From: Tricharina praecox
Lineage: Eukaryota
Direction of reading: 5' to 3'
Assembly (NCBI RefSeq): GCF_024521635.1
Contig: NW_026250424.1
Span: 434,001 to 498,000, forward strand
Length of the DNA: 64,000 nt
The position numbers and the translations under genes were made by a program. Under the pieces are notes generated by a model. That model did not search any database. It saw only the letters and a list, made by a program, of their open reading frames with translations, and was not told the origin of the DNA. Positions 13,577-22,818 of this stretch are shown piece after piece (positions within the stretch are counted from its first letter, which is position 1; the number at the start of each line of letters is the position of its first letter).

Positions 13577-14294
13577 CTAATGGCAAGCAACACTCTTCTC
13601 GACACTCGCCTCGGCGCCCCAGACGAGGTATCCCAGCACCGCTCCGACCGCCACGCTGATCATCACCCAGCCATTGTACGTCATGAACAGCAGCATGATG
13701 AAGAAGGAATAGAACACCTGGGCGCCGTAGAACAGCGCCTTCGTTACGTGTCCGCGCGGGTTCCCGCGGCGCGTGGTGGTGGTGGCAGCGGTCGAGACTG
13801 TGGACGCGGGGAGCAGCGGTGAGCTTTCATCTCCGGCAACTGGGGAGGGCGACGGCGGGGGATTAGAAGGGGGTTGCGATATTCCTCCTCCTCCTTCCTT
13901 CTTCCCGGGAACTGCCTCACGGCAGAGGGGGGGCAGGGAGAGTGCTTACTGGATAATCCCGCGCACCGCGCTTCGTACCGTCGGCTGGCGAGGCGCAGGT
14001 ACTCGTAGCCCATGCCGAGCGCGACTACGGCGAGGAGCGAGAGGACGAGCGACAGCGGCCCGGAGACGTGCCACCACCGGAAGACCAGGCACAGGTCTTG
14101 CGTGTTCCATGTGAACAGCCTGGTTTTGCGGACACGTCAGCGAGGGAAGGGGAAGGGGGGAGCTGGGGAGCGGGGGAGCTGGAGGGAGAGACGCACATGG
14201 ACATCTGGCAGCGGTGTCCAGTGTTGGGCATGGACATCATTTCGTCGTCCATTCCTGCGGCGCTGGCGGCGTGGTGGTGTTGGGAGTGGTCCAT
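13577..14294 (-). CDS. CTR2: Ctr-family copper transporter, Ctr2-like
   Basis: His/Met-rich N-terminus, CQMSMLFTWNTQDLCLVFRWWH, MLLFMTYNGW (MxxxM motif), C-terminal ACH*. Two introns. Confidence 0.9.
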
Positions 14295-14811
14295 TTCTGT
14301 CGTCTGTCGTCTGTCGTTTTGCGTGCGGTCGAAGGCGAGTTGGGATACGGACCTCTTAACTATCCCCAGGATAAGGCGACGCGCGGTGGCATCTTATCGC
14401 TGACGCCCGGACCCCAAGTACCGGTAGGGGAAGACGACCGGGTAAAAAGTGAGGCAGATAGAGCACATTCTACTCTAGTTGGTTGGTTTGTTTTGCGGGG
14501 GTTTTGGGTGGTGATGGGGGGTAAGCTTGGGGTAGGGTGGGGGAATTGGTGGTACGACATGACAGCGAGGTGTGGGATTGTGCAGACGACACGAGGCGGG
14601 TGAGACGCTGCATTCGGGATGACGGCTGCAATCGGCGTAGGGTGATCAGTGCAGCAGTTTTGGGATATGATGGCATGGCCGAGGTTGATGAGCAATGAGC
14701 ATTCCGATTCTATGCAAAGCTGTGGGACAACTCCCTTTTTAGTTCCAGTCCAGCTCTCTTCCCAGACCCCGCCCCGCCCCCATAACTACCCCACACCCGC
14801 TCAGAGACAAG

Positions 14812-15498
14812 ATGCTGCTTTCGAAACCCCTCAACATCCCCGCCTGGTAACATTGCCCCGTCCCCGTCCCCTCCCTCTTGTTTCCACCACCTACCACTGA
14901 CTCCACCGTGCAGGTTGGAGAAGAACTCCCACCTCCTCCAGCCACCGATCAACAACTACTGCGTCTACGATGAACACATGACGGTGATGATCGTTGGCGG
15001 ACCGAACGCACGCAACGACTACCACATCAATGAGACGCCCGAGTGGTTCTACCAATACAAGGGGTCGATGCTTCTCAAAGTCGTTGACGACGGCGAGTTT
15101 AAGGATCTGTGGATCAACGAGGGGGAGATGTTTTTACTTCCACGTACGACACCGTCCTCCTGCTCCTCCTCCTGCTGCTCCTCGTCCCGCTCCCGCATGG
15201 TACTATTTATGTGCCGGTGCTGACACCGGGAAAAGCGAATACTCCGCACAACCCGGTCCGCTTCGCAGACACGGTCGGAATCGTCATCGAGCAGCCGCGG
15301 CCGGAGGGCAGCCTTGACCGCCTACGCTGGTACTGCCAAGGGTGCAAGAAGATTGTGCACGAGGCGGCGTTCCACTGCACGGATCTTGGTACGCAGATCA
15401 AAGATGCGGTCAACGCGTTCAAGGAGGACGAGGAGGTGCGAATGTGCAAGAATTGTGGGGAGGTGGCTGCCGCGGCGCCGCCGGCGGAGAAGAAGTAG
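14812..15498 (+). CDS. BNA1: 3-hydroxyanthranilate 3,4-dioxygenase (kynurenine/NAD pathway)
   Basis: [62 protein letters not shown]...CTDLGTQIK...CKNCG. Two introns. Confidence 0.96.
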
Positions 15499-16037: not shown

Positions 16038-16594
16038 TTACTTTCCCACCCGAAAACAAAAACAGTAGATATGTAAATTCCAGAAAACGGCACATATAAT
16101 CAAGTTCCCCGTTGAACTGGAGCTGCACAGTGAGTGTGAGAAGCACGGCCGTTATTGAAAGTAATCAGCTCCGAAAGACGCACGAAAGGGATAGGTAGTA
16201 CGGTACCTGGGTCAAACTGCATAAAAGTGTTGTACATAACTGCAACAGAAGAATGGCCTATAGCCATTACAAGAATGTTCCACCGAACAGCCACATATCG
16301 TGCTATAGATAATCGAGAGGAACTTAAGTCGGAGGACGTTTTCAGTCGCTCACGTCACCCAATGATCCTGCACATACCGTACAACGTGTATGGCTGGAGG
16401 AATTGGGCTAATAGGGTTGGCCCTCGTGGTGAGCACAATGTGTAAGATTTAGTATCCCTCGATTCTTCTCTAAATACATTATACGGGCCATTGCAAGAGA
16501 AAGATTGTTTGCGAACGACTCCTTCGGCGTGAATTTTCTGCGTAGCTTCCTTCTTCGTAGGTAATACTCCAAAGCCTGACTGTGGTACATATCA

Positions 16595-17370
16595 TATCAC
16601 CGGAGACAGAGGCAAGGAGCTTCCCATCCGGTGGAAATGCCACTGCCTCGACCCAATGACAATGACCCTCAATGGCGCCGCGCGAGGCTCCGGTCGATGG
16701 ATCCCAAAGTCTGATGGTCTTGTTCCACAAAGCAGAAGCAAGGAGCTGGCCATTCGGTGAAAATCCCCTCTGCCGACCCAAAGCGAATGACCCTCAATCA
16801 CTCTCATATGTAGAGACGTCATTTGGCAATCCCTGAGCTGAGACCTTTGCAATCAATGCCGATGAACATGCTTCAAAAGCGCTGAACCTTCACTCGAGTT
16901 ATTGATGAAGCAATCATTCGTTTAGCCTTTTACCAAAGTCCTGATATTCTTGATATCGAGCTCTCTGCTAGTTGGGCACTCCGAAGAAAAAGAGTCCAAC
17001 GCATGACCTCAAGATAGCAATCGTTTTCCGTGCCTTCTAGGTAGGGGAGAAGCATTTGCGAGTGCCCGTAGATGCCCAGAATCAACACGGAGCGTTTACT
17101 TACTCAAAGGACAGTGAACGTTGTTTACCTACTTGATAAAAGACAATAACCGATATATATTATTGGACGGTAACCAGTAATATCTGTCCTGCTGTCGTTC
17201 GTTAGCCCGAGTTCTCAAGTTCGCTGTCAATTCATGCCTTTTCTGCTCGGGCACCATGCACATCATCCAAAGGCTATCTCGAGAATCCCCGAATAGGGAG
17301 GCTGGTAGATGTATGTAGTACGAGCACCGCGAAAGATAGAAGAACCAATGTAGTGCATGAAGATTCACAT
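16595..17370 (-). pseudogene. Decayed HET-E/NWD-type WD40 (fungal NLR) gene fragment
   Basis: IEGHSLWV..(frameshift ~16770)..FSPNGQLLASALWNKTIRLWDPSTGASRGAIEGHCHWVEAVAFPPDGKLLASVSGD, about 1.5 units of the 42-aa HET-E-like WD repeat. Upstream sequence is broken by stops; upstream extent is uncertain. Confidence 0.7.
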
Positions 17371-18158
17371 GTCACTGTAGAGACGCTCGAGATTGGTTGA
17401 GCCCGACGTGGCCAGTTATATCTCGCGGCTTTCGGTAGCGTATCGCGCGGCTATGGCGTATTGAGCGCTACTACAAGTGATGGACAAGCGGCAGTGCCGG
17501 CGCTGCACGGCGCGAATCCGCGAGACTGACGTATCGTTGAGCACTCCCGAGATCCTATGAATGCATGCAGACTGAAGGTGGAATAGAAGTTCAGGTCGCT
17601 ATCGGGCCTAAGGGCAAACCGTGTCTAACAAGAAATAATAGCCGATGTATAAAGGCACCGATGAGAAGGCGGGGTGGGGGGCTATCGGACCCGCTGTTGC
17701 TGTGTTGGTACTCTAGGAGGACTCATTGAGGCTGTCGTCACACGGTCCTGGGAGGAAGGTTAAAATCACTGCAAACGAAGAGGATACTGGAGATATTATG
17801 TCGGCTATAGAGCCGACAACGCAGTAAATATCGCATTGTCAAGGTGGTAGGATTCGCGCTGTGCGGACCGTGGTTTTCGTGTCATCTAGGCAGTAGTTGC
17901 TACTGTTATAGGTGTCGCTATCGCCTTGAACAGCCTTCAGGAGAGGTATATAATTTCGTCCAAAAGGCATTGCCTGGCTGCGTCGTCCCGTGAGGCATAT
18001 GCCATGACTGCATGCAACTAACAACCCCGCAGTCGCCAAGATATGATTGTGGGGGGTCTGTCCTCAATCGCGCTAAGAAAAAAAGCGAAAGAGCATCGTG
18101 CGTCGAGCACCCCTTCACATCACCGCGATCTCCATCCTCATTACCAGCACACGGCAAG

Positions 18159-19493
18159 ATGCACCAACCAATATCGCTCCTCTACTTCCGCGGGCCGGTC
18201 CTCCTCAAATCGCCGTTGTTCCTGCTCCGCGGCAGCGCCAAGCCCTTCGCCGTCGTGAACGAGATCCCGTTCCGTAACCGCATGCACCCATTGCACGCTC
18301 GCACAGTGGCCCGCTACGAAGCACGGCAGACACAGCTGAATCTCTACGTGGTCGTGGGCGTCGCGACCCACAAGTCCAACTGCGTTCGCGATCGCATACG
18401 GCGGCGGATAAGCGAGGCGACTCGACTGGCGCTGGCAGAGTTCGGGTACCGTGAGGATGGCAGTGCGCTCCCGGTCGCGAACCGGATGAAGGAGGGCGGG
18501 CGCGGGGGCATAGTCGGGACGTTGGTGTATCATCCCGTTTACAAAGTTGTCTCTGCGCCGTGGGAGGAGCTGATGGCAGAGGTGAAGAGGGGCGTCGACA
18601 AGTTCATGGTCCTGAAGGAGAGGGATGCCAAGAATGCGGAAATGGAGATGGAGGCGATGCTAGATGCGAGGGATGCGAGGAGGGCGTCCGTTGCAGATAA
18701 GATGCCATTGGCGTCGGCGGCGGCGCGGGAGAGGATTAGTTCACTCAAGGCGAGGGATGAGCAGGACATGAATGCTAGGCTTAGTCCTAAGGTGGAGGGT
18801 ACGAGGAGTTTTGTGGGCGATCGAAGAGGAGGCGGGGTTGCTGAGCTGCAGTGGAGACCGGCTCAGAGCTCGCACGGTGGTGACCGGAGGATCCCATCGC
18901 AATACCAGCAGAGCTCGTACGGCGGTGACCGGGGGGGCCCATCGCAAGATCGACAGAGCTCGCAAGGTGGTGACCGGAGGGGCCCATCACAAGATCGACA
19001 GAGCACGTACGGTGGTGACAGGAGGGGGCCGTCGCAAGATCAGCAGCGCACGCACGGTGGTGACCGGAGGGGACCATCGCAAGATCAGCAGCGCACGCCC
19101 GGTGGTGACAGGAGGGGCCCATCGCAAGATCAGCAGAGCACGCACGGTGATGACCGGAGGGGCCCATCTCAATATCAGCAGCGCACGCCCGGTGGTGACC
19201 GGAGAGGCTCATCGCAAGATCGACAGAGCACGTACGTTGGTGACCGGAGGAGCCCATCGCAAGATCAGCAGCGCACGTACAGTGGTGACCGGAGGGGCCC
19301 ATCGCAAGATCAACAGAGCACGCCGGATCACCAGCAACAGAGACAACCGCCAAACAGGGATGCGCCAACATGGCAGGACAGACCGCGGAAGGACAACCCA
19401 ACCGAGATGGCACCAAGGCAAACGGATAGGCCGCTGGCGTGGAGGCCCGCTACGCCGTCGTGGATGAGTCGGGGAAGAGGTGGAGTAGTGTAA
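18159..19493 (+). CDS. Hypothetical protein with an RnpA (bacterial RNase P protein)-like domain and a C-terminal 15-aa tandem repeat
   Basis: Intronless ORF, likely ATG 18159. LNLYVVVGVATHKSNCVRDRIRRRISEATRL resembles the RnpA RNR-motif strand-helix. Ten GGDRRGPSQDQQ-type repeats follow. Confidence 0.7.
   Translation: MHQPISLLYFRGPVLLKSPLFLLRGSAKPFAVVNEIPFRNRMHPLHARTVARYEARQTQLNLYVVVGVATHKSNCVRDRIRRRISEATRLALAEFGYREDGSALPVANRMKEGGRGGIVGTLVYHPVYKVVSAPWEELMAEVKRGVDKFMVLKERDAKNAEMEMEAMLDARDARRASVADKMPLASAAARERISSLKARDEQDMNARLSPKVEGTRSFVGDRRGGGVAELQWRPAQSSHGGDRRIPSQYQQSSYGGDRGGPSQDRQSSQGGDRRGPSQDRQSTYGGDRRGPSQDQQRTHGGDRRGPSQDQQRTPGGDRRGPSQDQQSTHGDDRRGPSQYQQRTPGGDRRGSSQDRQSTYVGDRRSPSQDQQRTYSGDRRGPSQDQQSTPDHQQQRQPPNRDAPTWQDRPRKDNPTEMAPRQTDRPLAWRPATPSWMSRGRGGVV
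18864..19313 (+). repeat. Coding minisatellite, 10 x 45 bp
   Basis: Units translate as QSSHGGDRRIPSQYQ / QSSYGGDRGGPSQDR / ... / QRTYSGDRRGPSQDQ. Confidence 0.95.
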
Positions 19494-19821
19494 TGGAATA
19501 CATCGGACTTCAAGCAGTTACGGGCAACAGTATTACACATATGTAGCTACCCACGGGCAAGCTGGAGGTGCTTAGAGTTAGGGGATCCAAGCATAGAATC
19601 CCCGTGGTCTCTCGGAATCATCACAGATAAGGGTCTGTTCAATAGGTGAGCCTGAGCGCATGGCGCCGAAGATGGTGATTGCAGCTTCACAGATAGTACA
19701 ATCGATATCACGCAATCACATGAACAAACACGAGGAGACCGTCTCGATTGAAATCCCAGAACAAGAACAAGAATCGTGAAACTGCTTTTCCCGAACACCT
19801 ATCTATCCGACGAGCCCACAT

Positions 19822-20586
19822 TTACAAGGCCGAAGGGTAGAGCATGACCCTCAATGTAGCTCCGAACGAAGCAGGAGGGAGGTTCTTGCGGAACCTAGAG
19901 AAGAAACATTAGCGTGCGAACATCATCGTGAGGACGATTGTTGGGGTCGTACTTGGCACGGACGAGACCGCTGTTGCCGTGTGGCCGAGTAACCTTGCCC
20001 CAGATCACCTATACCGAAGCATCCATCAGTCTCATATTCCTCCTTCCCCACAATTCAGCTCCCGGACAGAAAACCCACCCTAATCTTGGAGCCCTGCCTC
20101 TCGGTCTTGGCCCTGTAGACGAAAGCAACCCGCTTTCCAAGGTAGAAAGTGGCATCCTTGGGAGTCGCGACACCCTCAATCTGGACGAGAGAGGTGCTGG
20201 GGTTGGTGTTGCGCTTGCCCCGCTGGTACGAAAGGTGGCGAGCCTGAGTATCGAAGAAATCCACCATCAGTCTCCATCATTCCGCTTCCACTTCCTCCCA
20301 TTCTCCCGAGCCGAGCTTCCTCCCCAACCCAGAGCTCCTCCAAGCTTCCCCCCTCCCCCGATCACGCGACGCGTTTGGCCATGTCGATATTCCACCTCCT
20401 GATCAACCGCAAAAACCGGGAGAAGCTCGTCGGGGCTCATCGCTCATTCGGAAGAATCTCGAAAGTTGTGTGTGCTCACCTTAACGTATACTAAACAGCT
20501 ATCAGCACAAATTCCCACACACTCGAACCCCTCCATAGCCCTCCCCGAGTATAGGTAAACATACGTCTGTGGTTGGACTCCGGCAT
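19822..20586 (-). CDS. RPL33: 60S ribosomal protein eL33 (L35a)
   Basis: [26 protein letters not shown]...[14 protein letters not shown]...[26 protein letters not shown]...VMLYPSAL*. Includes an 11-nt microexon at 20480-20490 and a 5'UTR intron ~20597-20677. Confidence 0.96.
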
Positions 20587-21501: not shown

Positions 21502-22525
21502 TTACCAAGATCTAGTAGCGCCGGCAATCGCAGACCTCCACCCACTCGCGCTCCCAGCGATCACCGGCGGGGCGGCGGCTGCGCCTGTACTCCTCGATGC
21601 CGCCCCATCAGCAACAGCAACAGCAACATCCGCCCATTGTCTCCTTACTGCCCCTACAACATCCAAGCTGACCGCTACGAACTCCCCCGATGTGACTTCA
21701 AACATCCTTCTCTCGAGCTCGACCGCTTCGTCTCGGTTCTCCTCGCCCTCGTCTGAGTGGTTGTCATTAAGAAGCCGACTCAACTCCGGCGCTGGTGCGG
21801 GTGGAGGCCTGATCTCGCCACGCTCCTCGCTCTCTACATCTTGCGGTGGATCACCCGCCTCGTTGGTGTCTGGTGACGCCTCTTCCGGTGGTGGGCCGAG
21901 CTCTTGCTTCGTAATCACCAGGGTGAGCATCAACAGCTGCAGCAGGACGACGAGGATATCAACGTATATCAGTCGCCACTTGGATATGGGGCCCTCTGTT
22001 TCTCATTAGCCCAGCCGGCGGGAGGAAGCTGTAGGAAACAGTACTCTGCCCGATGAAATCTATGATCAACCCGCCGTGCAGGTACCCATGCGTCAACTCC
22101 CCCGCGGCGGGATTTGCCTCCCACAGATGCAGCAAGACACAAAGCGTAAACCCTCCAGCAATACCAATTACTGGCGACCGTGTTTGCGGCGGTAGCGGGA
22201 GGTTTATGATTTTCGGCGTCAGGAAGAGGAACTGTATCATGGCGCGCAGTGCGAAGCGAAGAAAGCTACAGCTGTTGGTCGGTGCGTCAGCAGCTAGCTG
22301 GGAGATGAGATGTGGATCCAGGGCACGGTACTCCATGAAGTATAGATATGATAGATGCGCGTATGTGATGATATCAAAGCTTCGAAGCATGTGGGTTAGA
22401 AACTCCTTGCGTTTCTGCGTGAGATGAGCCTTGTTGCTGTCGGCCGTGGAGATGTGCGGCGGAGCATCTGGGGCGACAGAGGAAGACGAGAAAGAGGAAG
22501 GGGAAGAGGCTTCGACATCGCTCAT
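21502..22525 (-). CDS. DUF1746 membrane protein (Dsc4-like, DSC E3 ligase complex)
   Basis: LRSFDIITYAHLSYLYFMDCSFLRFALRA...FLFLTPK, GYLHGGLIIDFIGQ..PISKWRLIYVDILVVLLQLLM. Two introns. Confidence 0.82.
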
Positions 22526-22818
22526 TGAATCATAGAGCTGTGTTATGTCTCTTTGCGTAGGAAGGGCAGTATTCGTGGTAGTGGGCGTCGTGGTGAACTC
22601 GGAGGGGACGGGACGAGGGAATCGGATGTTGGTGGTTGCGTAAGTATAGTACTTAGCTGCACGAGGGGAACGGATCCCTGCTTGTCAGTCTGTGGTCTCG
22701 CCAACAAGCGCGTCGTTGCAGCCCGTCGCGTCTACTCATTTTACTTCTATCACCACCACTACCACACTCTACCACCTCTTCACCACCACCTCCTCCTCAT
22801 CCAACATCAGCACACACC

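Follow-up and report, generated by a model that had tools for sequence, protein, structure and literature searches.

In bacteria, the established role of the RNase P protein RnpA (C5 protein) is that of a cofactor of the RNase P RNA (PMC4919922), and nuclear-encoded organellar versions of this protein are known both from prasinophyte algae and from a jakobid, Andalucia (PMC4919922, PMC7050145). Many fungi encode an RNase P RNA (rnpB) in their mitochondrial DNA (mtDNA), and the only known partner is Rpm2, a protein confined to budding yeasts; according to a 2012 review, no protein other than Rpm2 had been identified for an RNA-based RNase P of any organelle, and the same review describes the mitochondrial RNase P (mtRNase P) of Aspergillus nidulans as containing seven polypeptides that, as of that review, had never been identified (PMC3790967). 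PRORP, in turn, has been reported to be lacking in fungi (PMC10941002). Here we describe a gene at positions 18159–19493 of a 64,000-nucleotide stretch of DNA from Tricharina praecox (contig NW_026250424.1, positions 434,001 to 498,000; the whole stretch is referred to as the window), the product of which, P0001, is a strongly diverged homologue of bacterial RnpA.

The first ~165 residues of this protein retain the RnpA fold and its arginine-rich RNR-type helix, with two family-specific insertions. The features of the gene are as follows.

18159–19493, plus strand: complete single-exon coding sequence (open reading frame (ORF) list and translation; colinear with homologues P0002 and P0003; contigs of two sequencing runs gap-free)
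18159–18653, plus strand: RnpA-like domain, residues 1–165, with an S5-domain-2-like fold (AlphaFold2, VIA-align, hhalign)
18246–18329, plus strand: insertion 1, residues about 30–57, a helical hairpin with H43-P44-L45 (hhalign gap, conservation, model)
18378–18440, plus strand: RNR-type helix, residues 74–94, with the motif C-V-R-D-R-I-R-R-R-I-S-E-A (Pfam, hhalign, conservation, model)
18441–18515, plus strand: insertion 2, residues 95–119, a loop G-Y-x-x-D-G before G120-T-L (hhalign gap, conservation, model)
18561–18701, plus strand: C-terminal amphipathic helix, residues 135–181, one long helix (model; its first part aligns with the last helix of RnpA)
18864–19323, plus strand: 45-bp tandem repeat, 10.2 copies (Tandem Repeats Finder: 85% matches, no indels)
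19458–19490, plus strand: conserved extreme C-terminus SWMSRGRGGVV (ending kept in close relatives)

An earlier interpretation of this locus, made from the DNA letters and their translations (the sequence-only reading), had placed an RnpA-like protein at 18159–18610. This span reads as quoted and corresponds to residues 1–150, and the two segments on which that interpretation was built are present exactly in the translation (LNLYVVVGVATHKSNCVRDRIRRRISEATRL at residues 59–89 and GTLVYHPVYKVVSAPWEELMAEVKRGVDKF at residues 120–149), but the ORF extends further, and the long helix, the 45-bp tandem repeat and the C-terminal SWMSRGRGGVV that lie beyond residue 150 had been left undescribed. Nor did it have a place for the repeats of the arginine-glycine (RG)/Q-rich tail or for the pair of conserved insertions, features that distinguish the protein from bacterial RnpA.

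The proposed likeness to RnpA itself is borne out: Pfam and NCBIfam comparisons, profile-profile comparison with controls, Foldseek and VIA-align concur in identifying an S5-domain-2-like relative of RnpA. An AlphaFold2 model of residues 1–200, built from an alignment of 29 family sequences (A1), has a mean predicted local distance difference test score (pLDDT) of 89 and a predicted template modelling score (pTM) of 0.77, with 152 of the 200 residues at a pLDDT of at least 90; means over ten-residue blocks are 92–98 for residues 11–100 and 121–170, and drop to 78 and 75 at insertion 2. The model contains a strand at residues 60–64, a helix at 74–94, a strand at 120–126 and a helix at 135–181, the succession of strand, RNR-like helix, strand and C-terminal helix that had been read from the sequence. 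The sequence-only reading had named the lack of a structural match to RnpA as an outcome that would speak against it; when the model was compared with known structures, a match was found by both Foldseek and VIA-align. The five highest-ranking Foldseek matches in the PDB were all RnpA (S. aureus in three rows from two entries, E. coli and T. maritima), with probabilities of 0.96–1.00 and E-values of 0.012–0.049, none of them reaching E ≤ 0.001. Among 48,161 representative chains, VIA-align ranked T. maritima RnpA first (Z 9.9, root-mean-square deviation (rmsd) 2.8 Å, 98 of 109 residues, model range 4–153), followed by the RnpA of S. aureus (Z 8.8) and, in third place, that of E. coli (Z 8.5), the three together having an rmsd of 2.8–3.3 Å and 98–102 aligned residues. 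The next folds, at Z 6.5–4, were other S5-domain-2-like proteins: RNase W, the RNase E 5' sensor, EF-G domain IV and exosome/RNase PH, with GHMP kinases, MutL and GyrB as further matches in the same range.

Sequence profiles point to the same family. PF00825 (Ribonuclease_P) was matched in 20 of 29 family members at E ≤ 10; in the set of 36 homologues it was the best Pfam family for 24 at E ≤ 1 and for 14 at E ≤ 0.01, while 12 had no PF00825 match. Two homologues exceeded the Pfam gathering score of 22.3 bits (P0013, 24.2 bits; P0014, 23.4 bits). These matches fell nearly always at profile positions about 38–76, that is, on the RNR helix and the strand preceding it, and the helix formed the core of every one of them. 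TIGR00188 (rnpA) was the best NCBIfam match for all three proteins compared, with E-values of 0.15 for the window protein, 0.077 for P0004 and 0.022 for P0006, all far below the cut-off. When the ESM Atlas search was limited to named clusters, the family set given was that of PF00825 in 29 of 30 matches.

For a profile-profile comparison, RnpA was taken from the phylum of E. coli, in which all 61 genomes sampled contained PF00825. The search returned 30 loci, and the RnpA segments of 29 were aligned, one locus (L112) having been dropped since it gave no phmmer match. The comparison of the fungal domain alignment with this proteobacterial set using hhalign, which kept 27 of the 29 fungal rows, gave a probability of 94.2%, a P-value of 1.2e-7 and a score of 47.9 over 36 core columns, as against a score of 19.3 for the reversed fungal alignment and 8.1–17.2 for 20 column shuffles. 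Searches against single sequences were less informative. When A1 was compared with E. coli RnpA alone, only the RNR stretch was aligned (E 0.015, probability 2.9%); a profile restricted to the domain (A2) placed RnpA first among PDB sequences (E 0.32), through the RNR motif alone; and the full-length A1 profile returned mostly low-complexity Q/R-rich matches (FAM155A, TBP, huntingtin), with RnpA at E 0.23. A phmmer search of PDB sequences with residues 1–200 gave 40S S3 as its sole match (E 0.31). Considering the structural and profile evidence together, we put the probability of true homology with RnpA, as opposed to a chance resemblance, at about 0.9.

The pattern of conservation centers on the RNR helix. 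Residues F21, H43, P44, L45, V76, R77, R82, R83, L92, G96, G101 and G120 are invariant or nearly so, even though identity to the query is only 23–51% outside its nearest relatives; V76, R77 and R82 are invariant in the 29 and 19 sequences of A1 and A2, respectively, with R83 nearly invariant, and P44, G96, G101 and G120 are likewise invariant in both alignments, with H43 and L45 nearly so. The stretch V76-R77-D78-R79-I80-R81-R82-R83 aligns with v-R-N-R-I-K-R of the RnpA consensus Av.RNRIKR..RE and represents the RNR motif in variant form, the triplet being R-D-R in the clade of the window protein and RNR, RSR, RQR or RHR elsewhere in A1, with RNR in many of these other members. In an extended, low-threshold hhalign alignment, the RnpA profile is gapped opposite residues about 35–46 and about 104–122. 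The model has an inserted helical hairpin (helices 35–39 and 46–57) bearing the HPL motif at the first of these gaps, and a loop with G96, G101 and G120 at the second. A low-confidence part of the same alignment pairs the nearly invariant F21 and two further hydrophobic positions with the conserved F/L/F of the RnpA N-terminus. Aromatic residues lining the central cleft of RnpA hold the pre-tRNA by its 5' leader. The domain, residues 1–165, carries a net charge of +10.

An exhaustive phmmer search with residues 1–200 against 1.84 billion representatives returned 28 clusters at E ≤ 0.001, including 16 at E ≤ 1e-10, of which 27 align as a single family; 26 of these are in A1, and the other is the fragment P0024. 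The 28th cluster, P0031 (556 residues, E 9.2e-4), was judged to be a chance match to a repeat protein: it is made of ~50-residue repeats with ...YPW.EIS.KME.RS..., and six short stretches of it match query residues 123–144 (PWEEL...). Neither P0031 nor P0024 was included in the alignments. In both A1 and A2, a conserved N-terminal domain of ~150–165 residues is followed by low-complexity tails, mostly rich in R, G, Q and E, that cannot be aligned. The named relatives, all annotated as hypothetical proteins, are from the Pezizomycetes (Sphaerosporella brunnea, Morchella conica, M. snyderi, M. sextelata, Terfezia boudieri, T. claveryi and Tirmania nivea) and from one species of the Dothideomycetes, Zopfia rhizophila; these names come from word-indexed searches only (15 and 6 matches), which also contributed a few further members, and the wider range is given mostly by unnamed representatives and ESM Atlas neighbors. 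The latter, whose placements are leads rather than alignments, comprise Ascomycota clusters of 55, 61 and 159 members, a Basidiomycota cluster of 98 members (18% with PF00825) and a Zoopagomycota cluster of 77 members (82% with PF00825).

Among the described systems closest to the fungal protein is bacterial RnpA (PF00825, TIGR00188; e.g. T. maritima 1nz0, S. aureus 6d1r, E. coli 2ljp), with which it shares the fold (Z 8.5–9.9), an arginine-rich helix of the form V-R-(N/D)-R-I-(K/R)-R-...-E, a similar core size and a strongly basic domain. In contrast to its bacterial counterparts, however, it is eukaryotic, nuclear-encoded and monocistronic, with no rpmH neighbor; it has conserved insertions at two places, one of about 12 and one of about 19 residues, an RDR triplet where RnpA has RNR, a last helix extended to about 47 residues, and about 280 extra residues that include a 10-copy RG/Q-rich repeat. 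The fold class is also shared by further RNA-binding modules of the S5-domain-2-like type (the RNase E 5' sensor, RNase W, domain IV of EF-G, RNase PH/exosome), but these lie well below the RnpA score at Z 4–6.5, and none showed a match to the RNR-type helix in the sequence searches. The nuclear and archaeal RNase P protein Pop5/Rpp14 also has an RnpA-like fold. The list of Pfam matches of the 29 members at E ≤ 10 names 13 families and does not include PF01900, the family of Pop5/Rpp14, an absence that does not exclude the family, and no Pop5/Rpp14 chain is among the 50 best VIA-align matches listed.

Among eukaryotes, the RnpA proteins of the prasinophyte Ostreococcus tauri (Lai et al. 2011, as cited in PMC4919922 and PMC7050145) and of Andalucia godoyi follow the nuclear-encoded, organellar logic that we propose for the fungal protein. 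Both are recognized by standard RnpA domain models, the one for Andalucia being COG0594 (PMC7050145), whereas the fungal protein is more diverged and has the insertions and a long tail; and while O. tauri RnpA works with P RNA and complements E. coli (PMC4919922), the fungal protein is known from its sequence and model. Yeast Rpm2 would be alike in role, as the nuclear-encoded partner of a mitochondrially encoded RNase P RNA. However, Rpm2 is a 105 kDa pentatricopeptide repeat (PPR) protein (PMC6097661), unrelated in sequence and size to the 444-residue fungal protein, and Pfam detected no PPR match in the window protein or in the 29 members. No published fungal RnpA turned up in searches of the literature on RnpA, rnpB and fungal mitochondrial RNase P, and passages of three reviews and of an S. 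pombe mitochondrial transcriptome paper make no mention of one. Some fungal members evidently already carry a PF00825 tag in public databases, so that the family is visible there although it has yet to be described.

We estimate the probability that the protein has a role in mitochondrial RNase P to be about 0.5; such a role is plausible, and the gene is a good candidate for the missing mitochondrial RNase P protein partner in filamentous fungi. According to this model, the protein would be imported into mitochondria by means of its acid-poor N-terminus, rich in Ser, Thr, Leu and Arg, and would there act as the protein cofactor of an RNA-based RNase P. The RNR helix would bind the mtDNA-encoded rnpB RNA, the cleft would accommodate mitochondrial pre-tRNA 5' leaders in the manner of RnpA, and the insertions and basic tail would add RNA contacts that offset the reduction of the mitochondrial P RNA. 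Indirect support comes from the N-terminus, which is basic and poor in acidic residues, as the sequence-only reading had it: residues 1–34 contain four Arg/Lys and no Asp/Glu, the first acidic residue being E35. Over the ~36 residues that precede the HPL motif, the 29 fungal members have on average 4.2 basic and 0.69 acidic residues, with 13 of the 29 having no acidic residue, while the matching part of the 29 bacterial RnpA proteins averages 7.1 basic and 2.1 acidic residues; judged by composition, many N-termini of the family resemble presequences. Furthermore, Morchella conica, whose mtDNA contains two rnpB genes (PMC7782166), has a homologue of the family, P0033.

Several considerations weigh against a mitochondrial RnpA. 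The window protein itself has no PF00825 match at E ≤ 10, its only Pfam match being a spurious one to CHASE (E 0.17), and it scores 12.3 bits against the TIGR00188 cut-off of 38.35 bits. Matches based on sequence are limited to about 35 residues around the RNR helix, in which the central Asn of RNR is Asp in the clade of the window protein and S, Q, H or another residue in other members. Strands 14–17 and 21–26 are modelled at high confidence as part of the fold; removal of a cleavable presequence would therefore take part of the domain with it, and any targeting signal would have to be uncleaved. RG-rich tails are more typical of nuclear or nucleolar RNA-binding proteins. Finally, the ESM Atlas leads include relatives in Basidiomycota, where mitochondrial rnpB is uncommon and patchy, with reports from Microbotryum, Schizophyllum, Ustilago and one Malassezia species (PMC3942027, PMC10113387). 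If the relatives in Basidiomycota occur in species without rnpB, a strict pairing of RnpA with rnpB fails.

The leading alternative is that the family consists of true descendants of RnpA that have been repurposed as RNA-binding proteins and no longer serve RNase P, a reading that we consider possible but less likely than the mitochondrial RNase P role. Such a protein could be mitochondrial, with a function in RNA stability, ribosome assembly or mRNA processing, or nuclear or nucleolar, its tail being similar to an RG-rich (RGG) box. The insertions and their invariant residues (H43-P44-L45, with H43 and L45 nearly so, G96, G101 and G120) are absent from bacterial RnpA, RNR has been replaced by RDR at a position that varies across the family, and the model assigns the N-terminus to the fold, all of which would be in line with repurposing, as would the ESM Atlas leads in Basidiomycota, where rnpB is uncommon. 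The short motif at the end of the long RG/Q-rich tail, moreover, is kept in close relatives, and this suggests a new partner. Yet the strongest conservation in the family is found in exactly the helix with which RnpA binds P RNA, and RnpA is not known to have another widely accepted function. In addition, a relative has a mitochondrial rnpB with no known protein partner, and the nuclear RNase P/MRP protein family PF01900 does not appear in the list of 13 families matched by the 29 members.

A second alternative concerns only the origin of the gene and would fit either function: RnpA may have been acquired from a bacterium by a later horizontal transfer rather than from the mitochondrial endosymbiont. 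Eukaryotic RnpA is rare and patchy, having been reported, in the literature covered, only in prasinophytes and a jakobid, which speaks for such a transfer, but the family is deeply diverged within fungi, with members that are 23–51% identical, and its ESM Atlas leads are spread over Ascomycota, Basidiomycota and Zoopagomycota. The presence of both insertions in every member speaks for a single, old acquisition, and the 28 phmmer clusters include no close bacterial relative, none of them being RnpA-sized with bacterial features. We therefore consider a late transfer unlikely.

That the protein is unrelated to RnpA, having an S5-domain-2-like fold with an arginine-rich helix that came to resemble RNR by convergence, is disfavored and very improbable, since, although the window protein falls below both curated cut-offs, the Foldseek E-values are modest (best 1.2e-2) and many S5-domain-2-like proteins reach Z 4–6.5, in a range (Z < 8) that according to the VIA-align note can reflect a mere common arrangement, the RnpA chains lie 2–3.4 Z units above all other folds with nearly the whole chain covered (98/109), and the sequence evidence is independent of the model, with PF00825 best in 24 of 36 homologues, two of these above the cut-off, and a profile-profile P-value of 1.2e-7 with clean controls.

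Positions 18159–19493 form a single ORF of 444 codons plus stop on the plus strand, without interruption. P0001 is colinear with P0002 and P0003 over its whole length, beginning at the first Met and ending at the C-terminal RGRGGVV; over the first 200 residues the identities are 80% and 78%, respectively. One further feature lies upstream.

18012–18158, plus strand: in-frame extension from an alternative ATG, 49 codons (ORF list; the closest homologues begin at ATG 18159)

This extension is probably non-coding, because it is not conserved and the predicted starts of the closest homologues match ATG 18159; the starts of the homologues, on which the choice of ATG rests, are gene predictions rather than mapped starts. 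The region upstream also contains an out-of-frame 71-codon ORF from 18043, which, like the in-frame ATG at 18012, would act as an upstream ORF if transcribed, and a TATA-like TATATAA at about 17949–17955.

Contigs from two public runs of unrecorded kind, spanning 18113–19567 and 18213–19611, cover the whole ORF colinearly and differ from it at one synonymous position. At 18221, run X1 has T where the window has C, in the third position of the codon for F21; run X1 comes from a very close strain or species. The contigs begin at different positions (18113 and 18213) and those of neither run cover 17351–18052, and they were not used to choose the start. A contig of run X2 spans two GT..AG introns of the adjacent eL33 gene, so that this run looks transcript-derived and the ORF looks unspliced, a hint rather than proof that the RnpA-like ORF is expressed.

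The disordered tail evolves fast, via lineage-specific tandem expansion. In the window protein, the 45-bp repeat encodes a 15-residue unit, GGDRRGPSQDQQ(R/S)T(H/Y), and residues 231–444 consist of 17% R, 17% Q, 14% G and 11% D. P0002, 80% identical, has about one repeat unit and lacks the expansion, and P0003 has about eight KNAP(K/T)WQD units instead. Behind these non-alignable tails, an (R/H)G(G/M)[VIL][VI] ending is found in P0001–P0007, P0024 and P0032, and conserved C-terminal motifs of this kind may be docking motifs. Other endings were seen among the proteins surveyed (P0001–P0007, P0012, P0014, P0016, P0024, P0027, P0032, P0036–P0038 and P0041): one clade ends in ...RRF, and the Terfezia/Tirmania proteins in ...TTGGF(R/Q/S)(I/V)RR.

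The RnpA-like gene belongs to the nuclear genome of a Pezizomycete-like ascomycete and has no introns. The G+C content of the region is about 55–59%, and Pfam identifies the neighboring ORFs as ordinary fungal nuclear genes, as listed here.

13580–13945, minus strand: Ctr copper transporter (PF04145)
14789–15498, plus strand: 3-hydroxyanthranilate 3,4-dioxygenase (PF06052), split over two frames and therefore probably containing an intron
16482–16793, minus strand: isolated WD40-repeat fragment (PF00400)
19755–20276, minus strand: ribosomal protein eL33 (L35Ae), directly downstream of the RnpA-like gene and on the opposite strand (PF01247, E 5.6e-20, first exon)
21962–22684, minus strand: DUF1746 protein (PF08508)

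No functional link between these neighboring genes and RNase P is apparent. The short introns of eL33, at 19893–19950 and 20006–20075, have GT..AG ends on the minus strand and are bridged by the X2 contig at very high depth.

A conserved nuclear relative of RnpA provides a concrete gene with which the composition of the fungal mitochondrial RNase P becomes directly testable. We tentatively entertain, at somewhat below even odds, the further view that this family is the long-missing mtRNase P cofactor outside budding yeasts, and that a two-part enzyme of rnpB and RnpA has survived from the alphaproteobacterial endosymbiont into opisthokont mitochondria. If this were true, the gene would have been transferred to the nucleus, the two insertions and the RG-rich RNA-binding tail would have replaced structural roles of a shrinking P RNA, the presence and loss of the family would track the patchy occurrence of mitochondrial rnpB, and in Saccharomycetes Rpm2 would have taken over at a late stage. 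The family would then add opisthokonts to the prasinophytes and jakobids as groups with a known endosymbiont-derived RnpA, and would offer a natural series in which protein additions compensate for the reduction of the RNA in a ribozyme.

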